Shown in pieces: positions 1-25,012 of a stretch of 38,937 nt of DNA. How positions within the stretch are numbered: position 1 is the first letter of the stretch; each line of letters opens with the position of its first letter. The notes under the pieces are model-generated. The model was not told the origin of the DNA. It ran no database searches and worked only from the letters and a program-made list of their open reading frames with translations. Position numbers and translations under genes: made by a program. This stretch comes from a virus (lineage: Duplodnaviria; Caudoviricetes): IMG/VR virus record IMGVR_UViG_3300032024_000415, positions 1 to 38,937 of that record; one strand, given 5' to 3'.

Positions 1-1215
1 CTATTTTAGGGCGATTTCCAGCCATTCTGCTCCGCGCACATCATGATAAATAGCAGTCATTTTGGCGGATTTATGGCCTAGTAACAGCTGGGTGTTAATG
101 CCTTGTTCCGAGTAAAGTCGTTCCGATAATGATCTTTGCTCGTGAAAAGTCGGCGGGTCTTTTCCTTCCCATGTCATTGAAGTTAGTTCACGCGCTCGCT
201 GAAAGCCTCGGCTGATGGTGTTCTGATGCACGGGGTCGCCGGGGGAGTGTTTGGCATTGTTATTATCATGATGGATCAAGCGCTTTGACAGCACGCCACC
301 TTTCCGGCAGTTGGCAATCGCATCACCCAGGCTGAGGTTTAACCGGTCCAGTTTCAGTTCCAGCGGGATCCTCAGCAGGGCGCCGGTTTTTTGCTGAACG
401 ATGTGGAAAAAATCACCCTCAACATATGGGTAGGGTTTTATTGGGTGCGGTTGGCGTTGTTTGTAGGCCAAGTAAGCAGCGTCCCAGTCAGCGCCTTTTT
501 TAAATTGCGCCAGGCTGATGTCTTCGAGCCGTTGAGCGGTTAATAATGCCAATAACATCGCATTTTTGACAAAGGGTTGCAGGGCTTCGGCGGCTTGATA
601 GATGTCCTGCCAGTCCTCAAATGCCAACCGTGCCCGTTTGATGTAGACGGTTTTGTTTTTAGTCAGGGTCGCGGGGTTGGCGTCGGTCTCGCCTTCCTGG
701 ATGGCTTCGGAAAATATATCCATCAGGATTGAGCGCATCGACTGGGCCATCCGGTTCTTGCCTTGATCGCGCATGCTGCCTAATGTTGTCGAAATGTCTT
801 TGACGCTGATATTTTTGATGCCTAATCCGGCAAACGACAGCGCCCATTGCTTGGCGATGTAACAACGGATTTTATGGGTTGTCGGTTTTATCTCGCCGGT
901 TTTTAAGCGTTCGTCCTGGATCTTCAGATAGGCCTCGATCCACAGCTCAAATTTTATGCCGCTGATTTTGATCGTGGGCTGCTGCGCCAGGATACTGTCT
1001 TCTTTTAGCTGGGCGAGTTGGGCGTAGATTGCCGCGTTGAGTTGCAGGGCTCGGGTTTTGGCCACGTCTTCATCGGCACCGAGCCCGCGAAAGCGTCCGT
1101 CGCGTGGGTCTTTGTACTGGAAATTAGCCCGGTTGGTGCGCTTGTCGAGTTTGCGGTACAAGTTCGGGATCTTGTCCAGATCGCGGTTTTTGGGGGTTCG
1201 GTCTCGGGGTGTCAT
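1..1215 (-). CDS. int: Lambda-type tyrosine recombinase (phage integrase)
   Basis: N-terminal arm-binding-like segment (PNLY...FQYKDPRDGRFRGLG); catalytic motifs TAQRLEDI (R), QQKTG (K), FHEQRSLS (HxxR), LLGH, C-terminal Y; xis-like gene nearby. Confidence 0.95.
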   Translation of the reverse strand: MTPRDRTPKNRDLDKIPNLYRKLDKRTNRANFQYKDPRDGRFRGLGADEDVAKTRALQLNAAIYAQLAQLKEDSILAQQPTIKISGIKFELWIEAYLKIQDERLKTGEIKPTTHKIRCYIAKQWALSFAGLGIKNISVKDISTTLGSMRDQGKNRMAQSMRSILMDIFSEAIQEGETDANPATLTKNKTVYIKRARLAFEDWQDIYQAAEALQPFVKNAMLLALLTAQRLEDISLAQFKKGADWDAAYLAYKQRQPHPIKPYPYVEGDFFHIVQQKTGALLRIPLELKLDRLNLSLGDAIANCRKGGVLSKRLIHHDNNNAKHSPGDPVHQNTISRGFQRARELTSMTWEGKDPPTFHEQRSLSERLYSEQGINTQLLLGHKSAKMTAIYHDVRGAEWLEIALK

Positions 1216-1433
1216 TTTTGCTCCTTGACAGGCACTTCATAATCACAGCCATAGGCGTAATCAGGATTCGAACAAAATTTAAACCCCGTTGTGGTCACTT
1301 CAACCATCCGGTAATTACAATGTGGACAGCGTTCGTCCAGCAATTTATGGACGCACGTTCCGCCACCACACTTTAATACATTGCATTTATACATATTTCT
1401 GGTAGTCGTGGGTGTGTTTGTTGAGATAGGCAC
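1212..1433 (-). CDS. Small Cys-rich (zinc-ribbon-like) hypothetical protein; start uncertain (GTG 1433 or ATG 1394)
   Basis: CPHC and other Cys pairs; stop overlaps the int start (ATGA coupling). Confidence 0.55.
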   Translation of the reverse strand: MPISTNTPTTTRNMYKCNVLKCGGGTCVHKLLDERCPHCNYRMVEVTTTGFKFCSNPDYAYGCDYEVPVKEQK

Positions 1434-1461
1434 CGATAAAGGTGCCTATATAGCGTTAGGC
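1426..1461 (+). other. Left boundary of cassette array: 9-bp hairpin followed by core site GTTAGGC (attI/attG-like or degenerate attC)
   Basis: ATAGGCACC-GATAAA-GGTGCCTAT at 1426-1449, 5-nt spacer, GTTAGGC at 1455-1461, complementary to GCCTAAC at 2142-2148. Confidence 0.6.
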
Positions 1462-1464
1462 ACT

Positions 1465-2127
1465 CTATTTTGCTCTTTTTGTTTTCGAAAATCCCATTTT
1501 GTGCGCTTTATGCATAATCTGTTTTTCAGTTCTTCCTGGTAGTTTTTCAGCAACTTTAGTGCCAATGCGCGGGTATTCTGATTTAAGAATTTCAATTTCT
1601 GAGTCAGTCCATAAATGACGTGTTTCTGATTCTAATCCTAATCTAAATGCTCTGAGCATAATCTGTTTTTCAGTTCTTCCTGGTAGTTTTTCAGCAACTT
1701 TAGTGCCAATGCGCGGGTATTCTGATTTAAGAATTTCAATTTCTGAGTCAGTCCATGAATGACGTGTTTCTGATTCTAATCCTAATCTAAATGCTTTCGA
1801 TCGAATCTGGTTTTTATTTCTTCCTGGTAGTTTTTCGGCAACTTTAATGCTAATGCGAGGGTATTCTGATTTAAGAGTTTCAATTTCTGATTCTGTCCAG
1901 AATGTTTGTGTTTTTTTTGTTATACCTAGAAGATTAGCCATATTTTGTATAGCGCTAATTGTCCTATTTTTGAGTAAACACTGAATTTCTTTTTGAGTTT
2001 TATTGTTATAATTATTTTCCAATATTTTTATTTCCTTTATCGTCCACTCCTCATTTCTTCTTTTTTTTGGCTTAGCCAGTTTAATATCATCTAAAGCAGC
2101 TGCCAGGAATCTCGATTTACTAGCCAT
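1465..2127 (-). CDS. Basic protein of tandem SANT/Myb-like helix-turn-helix repeats (cassette 1 cargo)
   Basis: Four WTxxEIxxL...LPGRTxxQI repeats, three nearly identical (48 aa); much more AT-rich than flanks. Confidence 0.8.
   Translation of the reverse strand: MASKSRFLAAALDDIKLAKPKKRRNEEWTIKEIKILENNYNNKTQKEIQCLLKNRTISAIQNMANLLGITKKTQTFWTESEIETLKSEYPRISIKVAEKLPGRNKNQIRSKAFRLGLESETRHSWTDSEIEILKSEYPRIGTKVAEKLPGRTEKQIMLRAFRLGLESETRHLWTDSEIEILKSEYPRIGTKVAEKLPGRTEKQIMHKAHKMGFSKTKRAK
1513..1900. repeat. 144-bp intragenic tandem repeat (about 2.7 copies)
   Basis: CATAATCTGTTTTTCAGTTCTTCCTGG starts at both 1513 and 1657; third more diverged copy near 1800. Confidence 0.9.
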
Positions 2128-2141
2128 AATTTATTATCAAT

Positions 2142-2229
2142 GCCTAACCCGTAAATCAACGGGAACGCGGCCCTAATCTATCGTTAAAATTACAACGCGT
2201 CGCCGCGTCCCGTTATTATTGCGTTATAA
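2142..2229 (+). other. attC recombination site 1 (88 bp)
   Basis: GCCTAAC-CCGTA-AAT(C)AACGGG(A)ACGCGG...CCGCGTCCCGTTATT-ATTGC-GTTATAA; arms pair perfectly apart from the extra C and A typical of attC top strands. Confidence 0.9.
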
Positions 2230-2231
2230 AC

Positions 2232-2405
2232 CTAATACTCGTTCTCTCGGGAAATTTTCAGCCGCCTTTTTTCTTCCCATGCCTCCCAGTCTGTTGTGCG
2301 ATCCATCTCAATACACTCATCACAAAGCGGCACGCCGTGGTAATCTGTTAGTCCAGCTTCCTCGTCTCCGCAGTAATTACAATGAGTCCAGTCTCTAGCT
2401 TTCAT
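2232..2405 (-). CDS. 57-aa CxxC-x15-CxxC zinc-finger-like protein (cassette 2 cargo; not in ORF track)
   Basis: Hand translation MKARDWTHCNYCGDEEAGLTDYHGVPLCDECIEMDRTTDWEAWEEKRRLKISRENEY; GGAG 5 nt before ATG; fills the space between the two attC sites. Confidence 0.75.
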   Translation of the reverse strand: MKARDWTHCNYCGDEEAGLTDYHGVPLCDECIEMDRTTDWEAWEEKRRLKISRENEY

Positions 2406-2417
2406 GGCATCTCCGAC

Positions 2418-2505
2418 TTATAACCCGTCGCTCTACCGGAGCGCGGATTCAATCTATGTTTAAATTACGGGCGCTTTACCGCGCCCGGTTAGCTCTGCGT
2501 TATGC
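2418..2505 (+). other. attC recombination site 2 (88 bp)
   Basis: TTATAAC-CCGTC-GCT(C)TACCGG(A)GCGCGG...CCGCGCCCGGTTAGC-TCTGC-GTTATGC; same length and same extrahelical C and A as site 1; shared loop motif AATCTATnnTTnAAATTAC-like. Confidence 0.9.
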
Positions 2506-2781
2506 GTCATTAGTTTGCCTCATATTCAAAATCTGCAAAACCACCGGGTCGGTCGGGATGATAGTCAGGTCCACGTTGGCCGGGGTTTCGACGAATAATT
2601 TTACCGGCTTACGATATTCAGACAACTCGGTTACCATCCAGTCCTTACCGATTTTATGCGGTGCCGGGTGGATACAACCATTTCTGGCCCACGATCGTAA
2701 GGTATTCTTCGTGTAGCGGCCAGAAAATAGCGCTTCATTCCATTGTTGGAGCGTTATCATTTTGATCGCTGCGCTGCTCAT
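2500..2781 (-). CDS. xis: Excisionase (lambda Xis-like)
   Basis: ITLQQWN...TLRSWARNGCIHPAPHKIGKDWMV mirrors the lambda Xis pattern; upstream of int on the same strand. Confidence 0.85.
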   Translation of the reverse strand: MSSAAIKMITLQQWNEALFSGRYTKNTLRSWARNGCIHPAPHKIGKDWMVTELSEYRKPVKLFVETPANVDLTIIPTDPVVLQILNMRQTNDA

Positions 2782-4143: not shown

Positions 4144-4686
4144 TCACGCTACCGCTGGCCGGAATGATTCTGCTCTGTTTTCCCAGCCGTTGATAAATAT
4201 CGATTGACTCGGGTCGTGGGCGACGATCTTGCGGTAATAATCAACGCGTGCATCTACCAAGATGCTAATAACGCGATGCCCCAGATCGCTGAGGGCGCTT
4301 TCTGCTGCGCTGATAGTGCGCCGACCGATTAAACCATCAATGCCGCCGGGGTAATAGCCGTTTGCATCCAATGTTTTTTGCAGGATTTTTATGGCTCGTA
4401 CCGGTCCGTGATTGACGGCCATGTCAAAGATGATCGGCTGGATAGCGGATTGCAAGAGATTGATGTTTGGCGCCACATAGTAATTTTTCAGGTAGATTTT
4501 TTCGGCGGTGCTTTTGAGCAGCCGTTTTATTTCTGTGGTGCTGACGGTGCCAATGCTGCGATTAAAGTAGTCCGCATAAGCCGCTTTGGTGATGCCGTAT
4601 TTGGTTGGGCCACCTCGGTCTGCCGGGTGATTGATGTAACCGCCTTCTTTGGCAATGATGTCGTCTACCATGGCTTTTATGCTCAT
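4144..4686 (-). CDS. Glycoside hydrolase family 108 lysozyme with peptidoglycan-binding domain (endolysin-like)
   Basis: EGGYINHPADRGGPTKYGIT, FDMAVNHG, IDGLIGRRT, FINGWENR. Confidence 0.9.
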   Translation of the reverse strand: MSIKAMVDDIIAKEGGYINHPADRGGPTKYGITKAAYADYFNRSIGTVSTTEIKRLLKSTAEKIYLKNYYVAPNINLLQSAIQPIIFDMAVNHGPVRAIKILQKTLDANGYYPGGIDGLIGRRTISAAESALSDLGHRVISILVDARVDYYRKIVAHDPSQSIFINGWENRAESFRPAVA

Positions 4687-9150: not shown

Positions 9151-9882
9151 TTAAATCACGGTGCTTTGCCGGTGCACAATCTGTCCAATCATTATGCAAA
9201 TTTCGGCAGAACATAGTTTATCCGGGTACCGGTTTTTATCAGGATTGTCTGACCTTAAAAACCATTGCCCACTGTCGCGGTGCATCCGTTTTATAATCAG
9301 TTCACCCTCATAGTTGATGGCAAACACCTCGCCATCAATCGGGCTGCTTGATTCCGTATTAATCACCACGCTATCGCCCGAATAAAGCCGAGGCTCCATG
9401 GAATCGCCGGTAATTCTACAAGCAATAAGCTTGCTTGGTTTTAGCTTATGACTGCGAAACCAATCCTCGCGGAAGAATATGGGTCGTAATTCCTCATCAA
9501 GGTATTCAATCGAATATCCCGAAACACCGGCTTCCAACTTGAAACTTCCAAAATGGACGGCTACCAGATCATTGCCTGGCGGCTGTGCGGTTCTTTCTGG
9601 ACTGGGTAATACTTCGCGCACGGCGTGGCTGTCGATGTAGTCGCCTTCGACTGCTTCATGCGGAACATCCATCCATCCGCGATGGCGTACCTTTGATTCA
9701 TAAATAGTCTCTAAAATTTCATCGCTAATGTTCTTCTTTCCTTTTTTACCTTCTACATACAAGCATCTATTTATGTATGTAGAGTCCTTTCCGATTTTCC
9801 TGGCAAGTGCTGACGCATTACCACTGAAATCCCTTTCAATGATGCGCTTTAAATTTAGTCGTCTTATTTCAAATATATCCAT
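9151..9882 (-). CDS. cI: CI-like repressor (HTH + S24 autopeptidase)
   Basis: IRRLNL...ALARKIG HTH; GDSMEP serine and IIKR lysine; divergent from cro. Confidence 0.93.
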   Translation of the reverse strand: MDIFEIRRLNLKRIIERDFSGNASALARKIGKDSTYINRCLYVEGKKGKKNISDEILETIYESKVRHRGWMDVPHEAVEGDYIDSHAVREVLPSPERTAQPPGNDLVAVHFGSFKLEAGVSGYSIEYLDEELRPIFFREDWFRSHKLKPSKLIACRITGDSMEPRLYSGDSVVINTESSSPIDGEVFAINYEGELIIKRMHRDSGQWFLRSDNPDKNRYPDKLCSAEICIMIGQIVHRQSTVI

Positions 9883-21990: not shown

Positions 21991-23325
21991 ATGACATTGA
22001 AAGATACTGGCGAAAGACAAGTTTCCCCAACGATTGACGGCATAAGACGTGATCATGTCGCGCGTTACGAATTTGCGGCGCAAAAAATAACGGAAGGCTC
22101 AAAAGTTATCGATTTCGCCTGCGGCATCGGTTACGGCTGCCGGATCATGGCTGACGCTGGATTGTACGCTACCGGATTGGATCTAGATCCAGAGGCTATC
22201 AAGTACGCCAATAAATATTACGATATTCCATATACATTTTTTGCAACAGGCAACGCCAATGCCCCCGGCGAGTTAGGCAATTATGATGCCGCCGTCTGCT
22301 TCGAGACCATCGAACACCTTGAAGACCCGCGCCCCTTATTAAAAGCGCTTCGACTGTCGGCCCCGCTGCTGATTTGCAGCGTACCGAACGAAGACGTGAT
22401 GCCTTACGAATTTGCGCCTGGTCAGACCTACGCCTTTCACCACCGGCATTACACCAAACATCAGTTCAACGCGCTGTTGCAGGAATGCGGCTGGTGCGTG
22501 ACCGAATGGCACGGCCAAACCGGACCGGAATCGGAAGTCGAGCCCAACAACAACGGCCGCACCCTGATAGCCATTTGCCAGCGCGATGAGATCCGCGAGC
22601 TGGACCCTGAAAAACGCCATGTCGCTATTCTCGGCCTGGGTCCCAGTCTGGATCAATACCTGGAAATCACCAAGCGCCTCGGCGGGCGCCACAGGTTATG
22701 CGATGAAACCTGGGCGATCAACGCGCTGGGCAACGTGTTCGACTGCGACCTGGTGTTTCACATGGATGACGTGCGCATTCAGCAGATCCGCGCCGAAGCG
22801 GCCCCGGCCTCCAACATCGCGGCGATGCTGGACTGGATTAAAACCAGCCGCGTTCCGGTCGTGACCAGCCGGGCGCATGCAGATTACCCGGCTTTAGTGG
22901 AGTTTCCGCTGGAAGATGTGCTCAATCACCTGGGCCACGATTATTTCAACAATACGGCCGCCTACGCGGTCGCCTTTGCGATCCATACCGGCGTCACCAA
23001 AATCAGCCTGTTCGGCATGGATTACACTTACCCGAATGCGCACGATGCCGAAAAAGGCCGGGCCTGTGTGGAATTCTGGCTGGGACAGGCGCACGCGCGC
23101 GGCATCGAAATCAGCCTGCCGAAAACCACAACCTTGATGGACTCGATGTATTCAAGGGCGTCCAGGCTCTATGGCTACGACACGCTGGATGTTGATTTTC
23201 AGAGTCAGGCCGATGGCAGTCTGAAGCTGAATTTTACCCCGCGCGAGGCATTGCCGACCGCTGCCGAGATCGAGAAAAATTACGATCATTCAGCGCCCAT
23301 TTCTGATCAGCACATCCAAAAGTAG
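21991..23325 (+). CDS. Class I SAM methyltransferase fused to a sialyltransferase/Maf(DUF115)-like domain
   Basis: N-terminal HVARYEFA...IDFACGIGYG...CFETIEHL; C-terminal VAILGLGPSL...WAIN...NTAAYAVAFA...ISLFGMDY. Confidence 0.75.
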   Translation: MTLKDTGERQVSPTIDGIRRDHVARYEFAAQKITEGSKVIDFACGIGYGCRIMADAGLYATGLDLDPEAIKYANKYYDIPYTFFATGNANAPGELGNYDAAVCFETIEHLEDPRPLLKALRLSAPLLICSVPNEDVMPYEFAPGQTYAFHHRHYTKHQFNALLQECGWCVTEWHGQTGPESEVEPNNNGRTLIAICQRDEIRELDPEKRHVAILGLGPSLDQYLEITKRLGGRHRLCDETWAINALGNVFDCDLVFHMDDVRIQQIRAEAAPASNIAAMLDWIKTSRVPVVTSRAHADYPALVEFPLEDVLNHLGHDYFNNTAAYAVAFAIHTGVTKISLFGMDYTYPNAHDAEKGRACVEFWLGQAHARGIEISLPKTTTLMDSMYSRASRLYGYDTLDVDFQSQADGSLKLNFTPREALPTAAEIEKNYDHSAPISDQHIQK

Positions 23326-24112: not shown

Positions 24113-24496
24113 ATGGAAACTATGGAAACTATGGAAACTTTAGAAAATAATAAAATTAAAGCAGATGTAATCAATGGCGAAGAGTATTTTTCTATCAGTG
24201 AATTAGAGCGATTGATTAGAGAAAAGGAAATTGAAGTTGGTATCAGCCTGCCTGGTCTATGGACAAATTCTGATGGATTAAAAGGCGATGAAACTATAGA
24301 CCCACTTGCAGTATATGTGCAAATAAATGACGAAGATTATCCAGCGGTTATTATTAATTTTTCTGAAGAACTGCGAGACCTAATAAGAGACAAAGAAGGT
24401 GGATATAAGTCCTGGCCAGGAACAAAAAGAATGCGCGATCAACTTGAAAGACTGGTTAATGAGATGGACGACTGGGACGAAAATAAAGCCAAGTAG
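24113..24496 (+). CDS. Acidic AT-rich hypothetical protein (moron)
   Basis: Low GC; begins with 9-bp repeat CTATGGAAA x3 (METMETMET); flanked by duplicated Rz 3' ends. Confidence 0.7.
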   Translation: METMETMETLENNKIKADVINGEEYFSISELERLIREKEIEVGISLPGLWTNSDGLKGDETIDPLAVYVQINDEDYPAVIINFSEELRDLIRDKEGGYKSWPGTKRMRDQLERLVNEMDDWDENKAK

Positions 24497-24598: not shown

Positions 24599-24758
24599 TT
24601 ACAAACAGCTCGTAAAGTGCGGCGTCCATCTGTCGGTCGCCTGCCTCCCACTGTTGCCAGCAGCGGAGTTTTTTGTATATCAGCTCCGCCGCGTGGGTCT
24701 GGGTTAAGCCCGCATCCATGCGGGCTTGTTTGATCTGTTGGGGCGTTGGGTTGTTCAA
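24576..24758 (-). CDS. Small XRE-family HTH regulator (Aca-like)
   Basis: NPTPQQIKQARMDAGLTQTHAAELI...WQQWEAGDRQM; TTGA overlap with upstream gene. Confidence 0.85.
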   Translation of the reverse strand: MNNPTPQQIKQARMDAGLTQTHAAELIYKKLRCWQQWEAGDRQMDAALYELFVIKAKSRN

Positions 24759-25012
24759 AGATCCATCCCAGACAACTGATTCTCATAACGTAATTTCAAA
24801 TTATCAACCGTTACAATCTCAGATTTCGCTTCGTGAGAATACAGCCCGGAATGTGATGACCTGCCTGTGTATATTTCATAAAAACCAGCGGTATCAGTTT
24901 TAAAAACAGTCCTTGTTATTTTTCTAGGATCGTTATTTGTTTCTGTCCCCCAGTCGGTTACTGTGCAAACTTTTTCATCAGTTGCTTTTATTGCTGATTT
25001 TAAATTGCTCAT
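24755..25012 (-). CDS. 85-aa hypothetical protein (anti-CRISPR/anti-defence or toxin candidate)
   Basis: GGAG RBS; own promoter; coupled to the HTH gene. Confidence 0.7.
   Translation of the reverse strand: MSNLKSAIKATDEKVCTVTDWGTETNNDPRKITRTVFKTDTAGFYEIYTGRSSHSGLYSHEAKSEIVTVDNLKLRYENQLSGMDL

Follow-up and report, generated by a model that had tools for sequence, protein, structure and literature searches.

A lambdoid phage with an attI-type site and two reversed attC cassettes that likely exchanges cassettes through a host integron integrase

Introduction

Integron integrases (IntI) recombine the folded bottom strands of attC sites with attI, the exchange taking place at G|TT (Nivina et al. 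2016, PMC5027507; Loot et al., bioRxiv 10.1101/2022.09.11.507474). As the text of Nivina et al. (PMC5027507) has it, the recombining strand of classical cassettes is set by extrahelical bases, and the choice of the bottom strand puts the cassette gene in sense behind Pc, inversion being said to block expression. Cassettes are also found outside integrons: in the SALIN/attG route, as the text of Loot et al. (bioRxiv 10.1101/2022.09.11.507474) describes it, IntI acting in trans inserts a single cassette at a bare GWT that has no att site nearby, and neither strand is favored. Two recent preprints (bioRxiv 2024.07.02.601686 and 2024.07.02.601719) present integrons as stores of anti-phage genes.

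Integron-derived arrays are known from phages as well. Qi, Rajabal, Ghaly, Tetu and Gillings (2023, PMC9892861) reported CALINs in phage genomes and found that five of six phage attC sites recombine with IntI1; one CALIN, in the inactive Shewanella prophage M16-3, comes with an attI of its own. Their text calls the arrays typical of bacterial ones or ascribes oddities to mosaicism. It describes no systematic reversal, phage-type attI family or reversed-cassette exchange with host arrays, although the figures and supplements of that paper may show orientation.

Here, we describe an array in a complete lambdoid provirus record of 38.9 kb, the whole of which was analyzed and is called the window below. 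Like the phage CALINs of Qi et al. (PMC9892861), it combines at least two attC sites with the absence of an integron integrase nearby, and so falls under the definition of a CALIN. Its sites resemble those of chromosomal integrons in Methylobacter and other Methylococcaceae (L015, L027-L030, L039), which share its attI layout and family, attC sites of 88-92 bp, the G|TT crossover and core complementarity. Those integrons, however, possess intI and mostly forward genes, whereas the window has no intI, reversed genes and a transcript that likely reaches the array from its far side. We consider it probable that this phage, equipped with an attI-type site and two reversed attC cassettes and lacking IntI, adds and removes cassettes by means of a host integron integrase. 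Phage CALINs, one prophage CALIN with attI, and the sites and enzyme themselves are already known; what was not found in the literature searched is the reversed polarity and a phage-side cassette pool. Nor did that search, with most subscription journals outside its scope, return a paper on reversed, attI-headed phage arrays.

Results and Discussion

Genome context and likely host

The window encodes a CI-like repressor and a lambda-type integrase–excisionase region (Table 1), and head and tail genes on the plus strand were identified by eye in the list of open reading frames. The search for viral relatives of xis returned none. A Methylobacter genome carries a relative with 65% identity in xis and 83% in the N-terminus of int.

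Table 1. Coordinates of the array and of neighboring or related features in the window.
Feature	Position	Strand	Evidence and remarks
int, lambda type with arm-binding domain, not IntI	1..1215	-	Pfam PF09003, PF00589; no TIGR02249 match
60-aa cysteine-rich accessory ORF, between attI and int, outside cassettes	1212..1394	-	stop overlaps int start
left extension of docking site	1411..1425	+	conserved among phage copies, not host copies
attI-type site	1426..1461	+	arm 1426-1434 (9 bp), 6-nt loop, arm 1441-1449 (9 bp), 5-nt spacer, G|TT at 1455/1456
cassette 1, 768 bp	1456..2223	top +	first bases complement own R'' box, 7/7 in circle
cassette 1 gene, 220 aa, Myb/SANT-like repeats	1465..2127	-	Pfam PF00249, E 3e-12; PHROG 323, D5-like regulator
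attC1	2142..2229	top +, bottom -	anatomy scan, circle pairing, covariance model
cassette 2, 276 bp	2224..2499	+	R boxes pair 7/7 in circle
cassette 2 gene, 57 aa, two CxxC motifs, phage-type	2232..2405	-	weak PHROG 5602 match, E 9e-4
attC2	2418..2505	top +	anatomy scan, circle pairing, covariance model; R' box contains minus-strand xis stop codon
excisionase xis	2500..2781	-	Pfam PF07825; end unlike relatives, DNA homology ends at 2524
CI-like repressor with peptidase domain	9151-9882	-	profile matches (PHROG, Pfam)

The host genus is probably Methylobacter, judging from the spread of the attC family, the relative above and CRISPR spacers. When the attC family pattern was run over 185,579 genomes, it matched 12 loci, ten of them in Methylobacter, one in another member of the Methylococcaceae and one in Gallionella. 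A Methylobacter CRISPR array (L022:3500-4000) contains two spacers among 53 that match attC1 (30/33 nt) and attC2 (30/32 nt) of the window. Both targets are preceded by CC, which we take to be the type I-F PAM. The spacer matching attC1 has more than one target, as it also fits a chromosomal attC of L015. One further spacer of the same array resembles, by eye, a third attC type.

Other genes of the window were recorded alongside. An endolysin-family gene (GH108 plus a peptidoglycan-binding domain; 4144-4686, minus strand) lies in the early leftward arm, outside any late lysis block, and look-alikes occupy the same arm in L005, L007 and L018. After the capsid genes, a 444-aa ORF (21991-23325, plus strand) appears by eye to be methyltransferase-like and fused to a second domain. 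Two orphan ORFs, 24755-25012 (minus) and 24113-24496 (plus), sit amid the late genes, one of them opposing the direction of the operon; neither gave a PHROG match or, with the covariance model described below, an adjoining attC.

attC sites and cassettes

A sequence-only reading of this DNA had placed two 88-bp attC sites inside the xis-int operon, and both their positions and their anatomy were confirmed. In attC1, the R'' box GCCTAAC is followed by a 5-nt spacer and the L'' box AATCAAC, with an extra C and, in the inner arm, an extra A; the right half comprises L' (GTTATT), a 5-nt spacer and R' (GTTATAA). The layout of attC2 is the same, with one L-box mismatch. The anatomy scanner reported exactly these two sites over the full 38.9 kb; in 30 samples drawn from a first-order Markov model of the window, it reported 0.37 on average.

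The same reading had proposed scoring with an attC model. A covariance model trained on 22 attC bottom strands, all taken from chromosomal arrays of Methylobacter and none belonging to the window, matched the minus strand at 68.5 bits (attC1) and 62.2 bits (attC2), compared with only 20.7 and 29.3 bits on the plus strand, and no other window position at E<=1. Since the minus strand scores far above the plus strand, it is the attC bottom strand, and it bears the extrahelical bases, an extra G and an extra T. The AATCTAT loop, which the reading had suggested looking for in host attC sites, occurs in host-array sites of L016 and L019. The predicted probability of the canonical fold is 0.31 and 0.34 in the circles and 0.26 and 0.03 in the linear array; for the host attC sites it ranges over 0.17-0.99, with 17 of 22 above 0.85. 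Folded without constraint, attC2 yields two small hairpins instead of the attC fold.

The claim that each cassette begins with the complement of its own core holds: on circle closure the R boxes pair at every position (Table 1), against 4/7 and 5/7 in the linear array. Each cassette also contains, as had been noted, one tightly fitted ORF, which ends 9 nt (cassette 1) or 8 nt (cassette 2) inside the left crossover. The Myb-like gene of cassette 1 (GC 33%) includes three 144-bp copies spanning 1490-1921; contig depth doubles across this segment, as would be expected for collapsed repeats. Look-alikes of the cassette 2 protein in the Atlas belong to unnamed, mostly viral clusters, which we treat as a lead only.

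The most unusual feature of the array, overlooked in the sequence-only reading, is the orientation of these genes. Both are encoded on the attC bottom strand, reversed with respect to a textbook cassette and co-directional with xis and int, so that neither is a top-strand gene readable from Pc. Normal bottom-strand insertion, which in the classical case brings a gene into sense behind Pc, would here give sense orientation within the phage operon. On the attI side, the search for Pc found one weak 9/12 site (1292-1321, plus strand); three sites were found in all, against 3.5 expected by chance. DNA and protein searches found no second occurrence of either window cassette, so that the mobility of these two has to be judged from other cassettes: the Myb protein has remote relatives only (28-40% identity), the cassette 2 protein returned itself alone, and window DNA 1200-2141 matched none of 43 Methylobacter genomes.

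attI-type docking site

The array was earlier proposed to begin at a cassette landing pad, and two observations support this: the site at its head is homologous to the attI that accompanies intI in Methylobacter, and the corresponding sites of related phages change directly after G|TT. The palindromic stretch at 1426-1457, which had gone unrecognized as an attI homolog, is identical at 25 of 35 bases to the site beside host intI in L030. Five Methylobacter/Methylococcaceae loci (L027-L030, L039) show the same 9-6-9-5 layout some 130 bp away from the start of intI. By its homology to an intI-adjacent site and its G|TT crossover at the head of the array, the site is of the attI type. The 15-nt block to its left (1411-1425) has an identity of 0.87-0.93 to the phage copies L009, L020, L025, L061 and L062, against 0.40 to host L030.

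Covariation within the attI palindrome is not above that of shuffles (68 of 500 reach its score), and folding of attI is therefore not claimed; the palindrome would suit a symmetric binding site in duplex DNA equally well. A search of 50,697 annotated phage records gave no meaningful match to either the docking site or the attC region. A second family of host attI sites, with a CGACA..TGTCG palindrome, was seen in L017, L032, L033 and L040, and a look-alike of it heads a reversed cassette in phage L014. Several Methylococcaceae genomes (L185-L189, L192, L195-L218) carry up to four attI copies each, many of which head forward arrays with no intI within 1.5 kb, being docking sites without an integrase of their own.

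Orientation of cassette genes in phages and chromosomes

Pattern searches for attI returned 18 distinct phage or prophage copies, the window included, and 34 chromosomal copies, after a palindrome read backwards (L077) and a short flank duplicating another locus (L181) were left out; because the phage pattern was drawn from the window and its look-alikes, a single attI family was sampled. In phages, the first ORF after the site is reversed in 17 copies and forward in one, and all 17 reversed ORFs end between -12 and +20 nt from the crossover. On chromosomes it is forward in 23 copies and reversed in four, with no call for seven; 15 of these 34 sites have intI on their left. The sole phage site with a forward, host-type first cassette (L182) is followed by reversed genes and may represent the capture of a forward host cassette by a phage.

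A generic attC pattern identified 123 viral loci, in which 88 cassettes lie between neighboring attC sites: 80 are reversed, two forward and six unclear, and core complementarity is complete (7/7) in 55 of the 80. Bacterial loci gave 12 reversed (two of these rows belonging to a prophage), 11 forward and five unclear among 28 cassettes, a sample chosen by the phage-type pattern and thus enriched in reversed cassettes. These calls come from our own codon-score caller, with a few rows called differently between two runs; it replaced a cruder and noisy longest-ORF test, by which 70 of 125 sites were reversed and 47 forward.

The base two positions before G|TT is G in all 48 phage attC sites, including all 30 from loci for which the search left that base free. 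Among chromosomal sites, 28 of the 31 forward ones have A there and 12 of the 21 reversed ones have G (Fisher p 3e-4 for forward against reversed, the sites not being independent). This pattern would be consistent with two pools that mix only occasionally. Avoidance of the ACGT palindrome was considered as a cause of the G at -2 and set aside as weak, its ratio being 0.79 in the window versus 1.04 in host loci and CGCG and GGCC being equally low.

History of the locus, breakpoints and a shared cassette

An exact empty site had been predicted in related prophages and was not found: in relatives with the same int (L171, L172, L174, L047), attI is absent and 25-30 bp separate xis from int, and their DNA homology to the window stops at 2524, while two others (L001, L173) have no xis at that place. 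Since xis lies near int without attI in relatives and homology ends at 2524, attI and the small cysteine-rich ORF were likely gained as one block, which would have replaced the end of xis and left its stop codon in the right-hand core. A 75% identical relative of the small ORF occurs in phage locus L193, which has no attI of the window type.

This history bears on the view that the array is a passive fragment of a host integron, taken up as a whole and by now inactive in recombination in the phage. The absence of the whole 1.28-kb block, with the xis end replaced, from relatives whose int N-termini are 83-89% identical indicates that the block came as a unit at some time, and attC2 has an L-box mismatch and a competing fold. 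Host integron fragments are also described in Vibrio phages in the text of Qi et al. (PMC9892861). Against this view, the attI of the window belongs to a phage-type variant that has G at -2 and a left extension of its own; the cassette genes are reversed and resemble phage genes, in contrast to most first cassettes next to host attI; and phages with identical left flanks carry different cassettes. We regard a passive fragment as unlikely.

Breakpoints in other phages point to exchange at the predicted position. The sequence-only reading had named G|TT as the place where the variable regions of relatives should part, and their sequences do part directly after it. Phages L178 and L184 share the same 120 bp up to G|TT, but from 15 nt beyond it their identity is down to 0.20; between the window and L061, identity is 0.80-0.93 over the last 45 nt before the crossover and 0.33 after it. 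The first cassette of phage L061 recurs in the chromosomal array L021, with 89% identity over a 296-nt match that runs from G|TT to G|TT. That array opens at an attI of the second family beside pepA and has reversed small genes first and forward genes further along. Reversed phage-like cassettes were seen at first positions of host arrays, adjoining attI, at L021:4935-6600 and L033:2607-3118 and in L197 and L212.

Gene swaps among phages by RecA- or Red-type recombination, with the attC-like repeats serving as homology and IntI playing no part, would account for sites that are related in sequence across many phages, and lambdoid phages do encode homologous recombination systems of their own. 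The boundaries, however, lie at G|TT and not at random points inside the repeats; core complementarity travels with each cassette, and the cassette shared by L061 and L021 stands behind attI in the one and behind attC in the other. Homologous swapping is very unlikely to be the explanation.

Contigs of four sequencing runs contained no joint skipping a cassette and no circle. Two other runs cover 1283-1453 and 1312-1458, and neither int nor cassette 1, which is suggestive only.

Source of the integrase

As had been read from the sequence, the window encodes no IntI: TIGR02249 has no match in it, the neighboring integrase is of the lambda type, and intI beside attI, the mark of a complete integron, is absent. 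The accompanying suggestion, that a host IntI acts in trans, receives indirect support, since an IntI over the family cut-off is present in 11 of the 12 host genomes that carry the window's attC family and in none of 12 phage records. The runs containing the phage also contain two contigs that bridge the window's attI type and an intI start, with 87-89% identity to L027; there are two such runs, probably one data set and perhaps the source of the window, and the co-occurrence is one within a community, not within a single cell. In genome G015, a prophage carries reversed cassettes and the chromosome an attI, yet no IntI scores over the cut-off, so reversed arrays can sit in hosts that possibly do not shuffle them.

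The proposal that IntI is SOS-linked, and that cassette shuffling could coincide with induction, found no support: no E. coli-type LexA box lies upstream of the 11 host intI genes. As LexA scores over the cut-off in four of five host genomes, a different box is possible. SOS coupling of the phage repressor is plausible.

Action of another recombinase on these sites, be it the neighboring phage Int or an Xer-like host enzyme, is suggested by the position of the lambda-type int, which starts 240 bp left of the crossover and is transcribed away from the array as intI is; in L011, L020 and L077, too, an int gene is found on the left of the site. The phage enzyme has an arm-binding domain but no real similarity to IntI (best BLASTP E of 0.086 against host IntI), many phage attI copies have no adjoining integrase, and the same site flanks true intI in 15 of the 34 chromosomal copies, all of which makes this very improbable. 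Chance insertion at a non-classical attG is barely credible: small CALINs may originate in this way according to the text of Loot et al., and the xis stop codon lies within a GTT core, but the window has two attC sites and, in place of a bare GWT, a full, conserved 33-nt attI homolog with 18 phage and 34 chromosomal copies, and 17 of 18 reversed first ORFs contrast with the lack of strand bias reported for attG insertions.

Proposed mechanism

Recombination by a host integron integrase is thus the reading we prefer, and it draws on what was observed directly: the sites with their polarity, the resemblance of attI and attC to host sites, the G|TT breakpoints in other phages and the one cassette shared between a phage and a chromosomal array. 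A cassette circle would present its attC as a folded bottom strand, which IntI would recombine with the phage attI at 1455/1456. Given insertion at this point, cassette 2 would have entered first and cassette 1 later, both after the block had been gained. The leftward early transcript would run through xis, cassette 2, cassette 1, attI, the small ORF and int; entering the array from its far end, it would read only reversed genes. Forward host cassettes, many of them anti-phage defenses, would accordingly land antisense and silent in the phage, and phage cassettes would land antisense to the host Pc, being silent or producing antisense RNA in the host. A single enzyme would in this way serve two largely separate cassette pools.

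A more far-reaching idea, which we consider doubtful, is that phage early operons make and keep a mirror-image cassette pool in which polarity acts as an address code on the shared IntI. A reversed phage cassette captured behind the host Pc, of the kind seen at the first positions of L021, L033, L197 and L212, would then yield antisense RNA against a phage early gene, amounting to a heritable, integron-written memory of infection.

Conclusions

As a test case, the locus is compact: a likely host genus can be named, and that genus supplies both a cognate IntI and a host attI to match. Because cassettes of the window type hold phage-type genes and also appear in host arrays, they would provide a handle on the origins of cassettes. 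Spacers against attC could cover many phages, at the risk of self-targeting once such cassettes reach a host array. If the phage indeed uses its attI and a reversed pool on the host IntI, reversal would shield it from expressing captured defense genes, and the array would give phages a precise route for the turnover of accessory genes. Integrons have been treated as bacterial devices; on this reading, the same enzyme would also feed the adaptation of phages.
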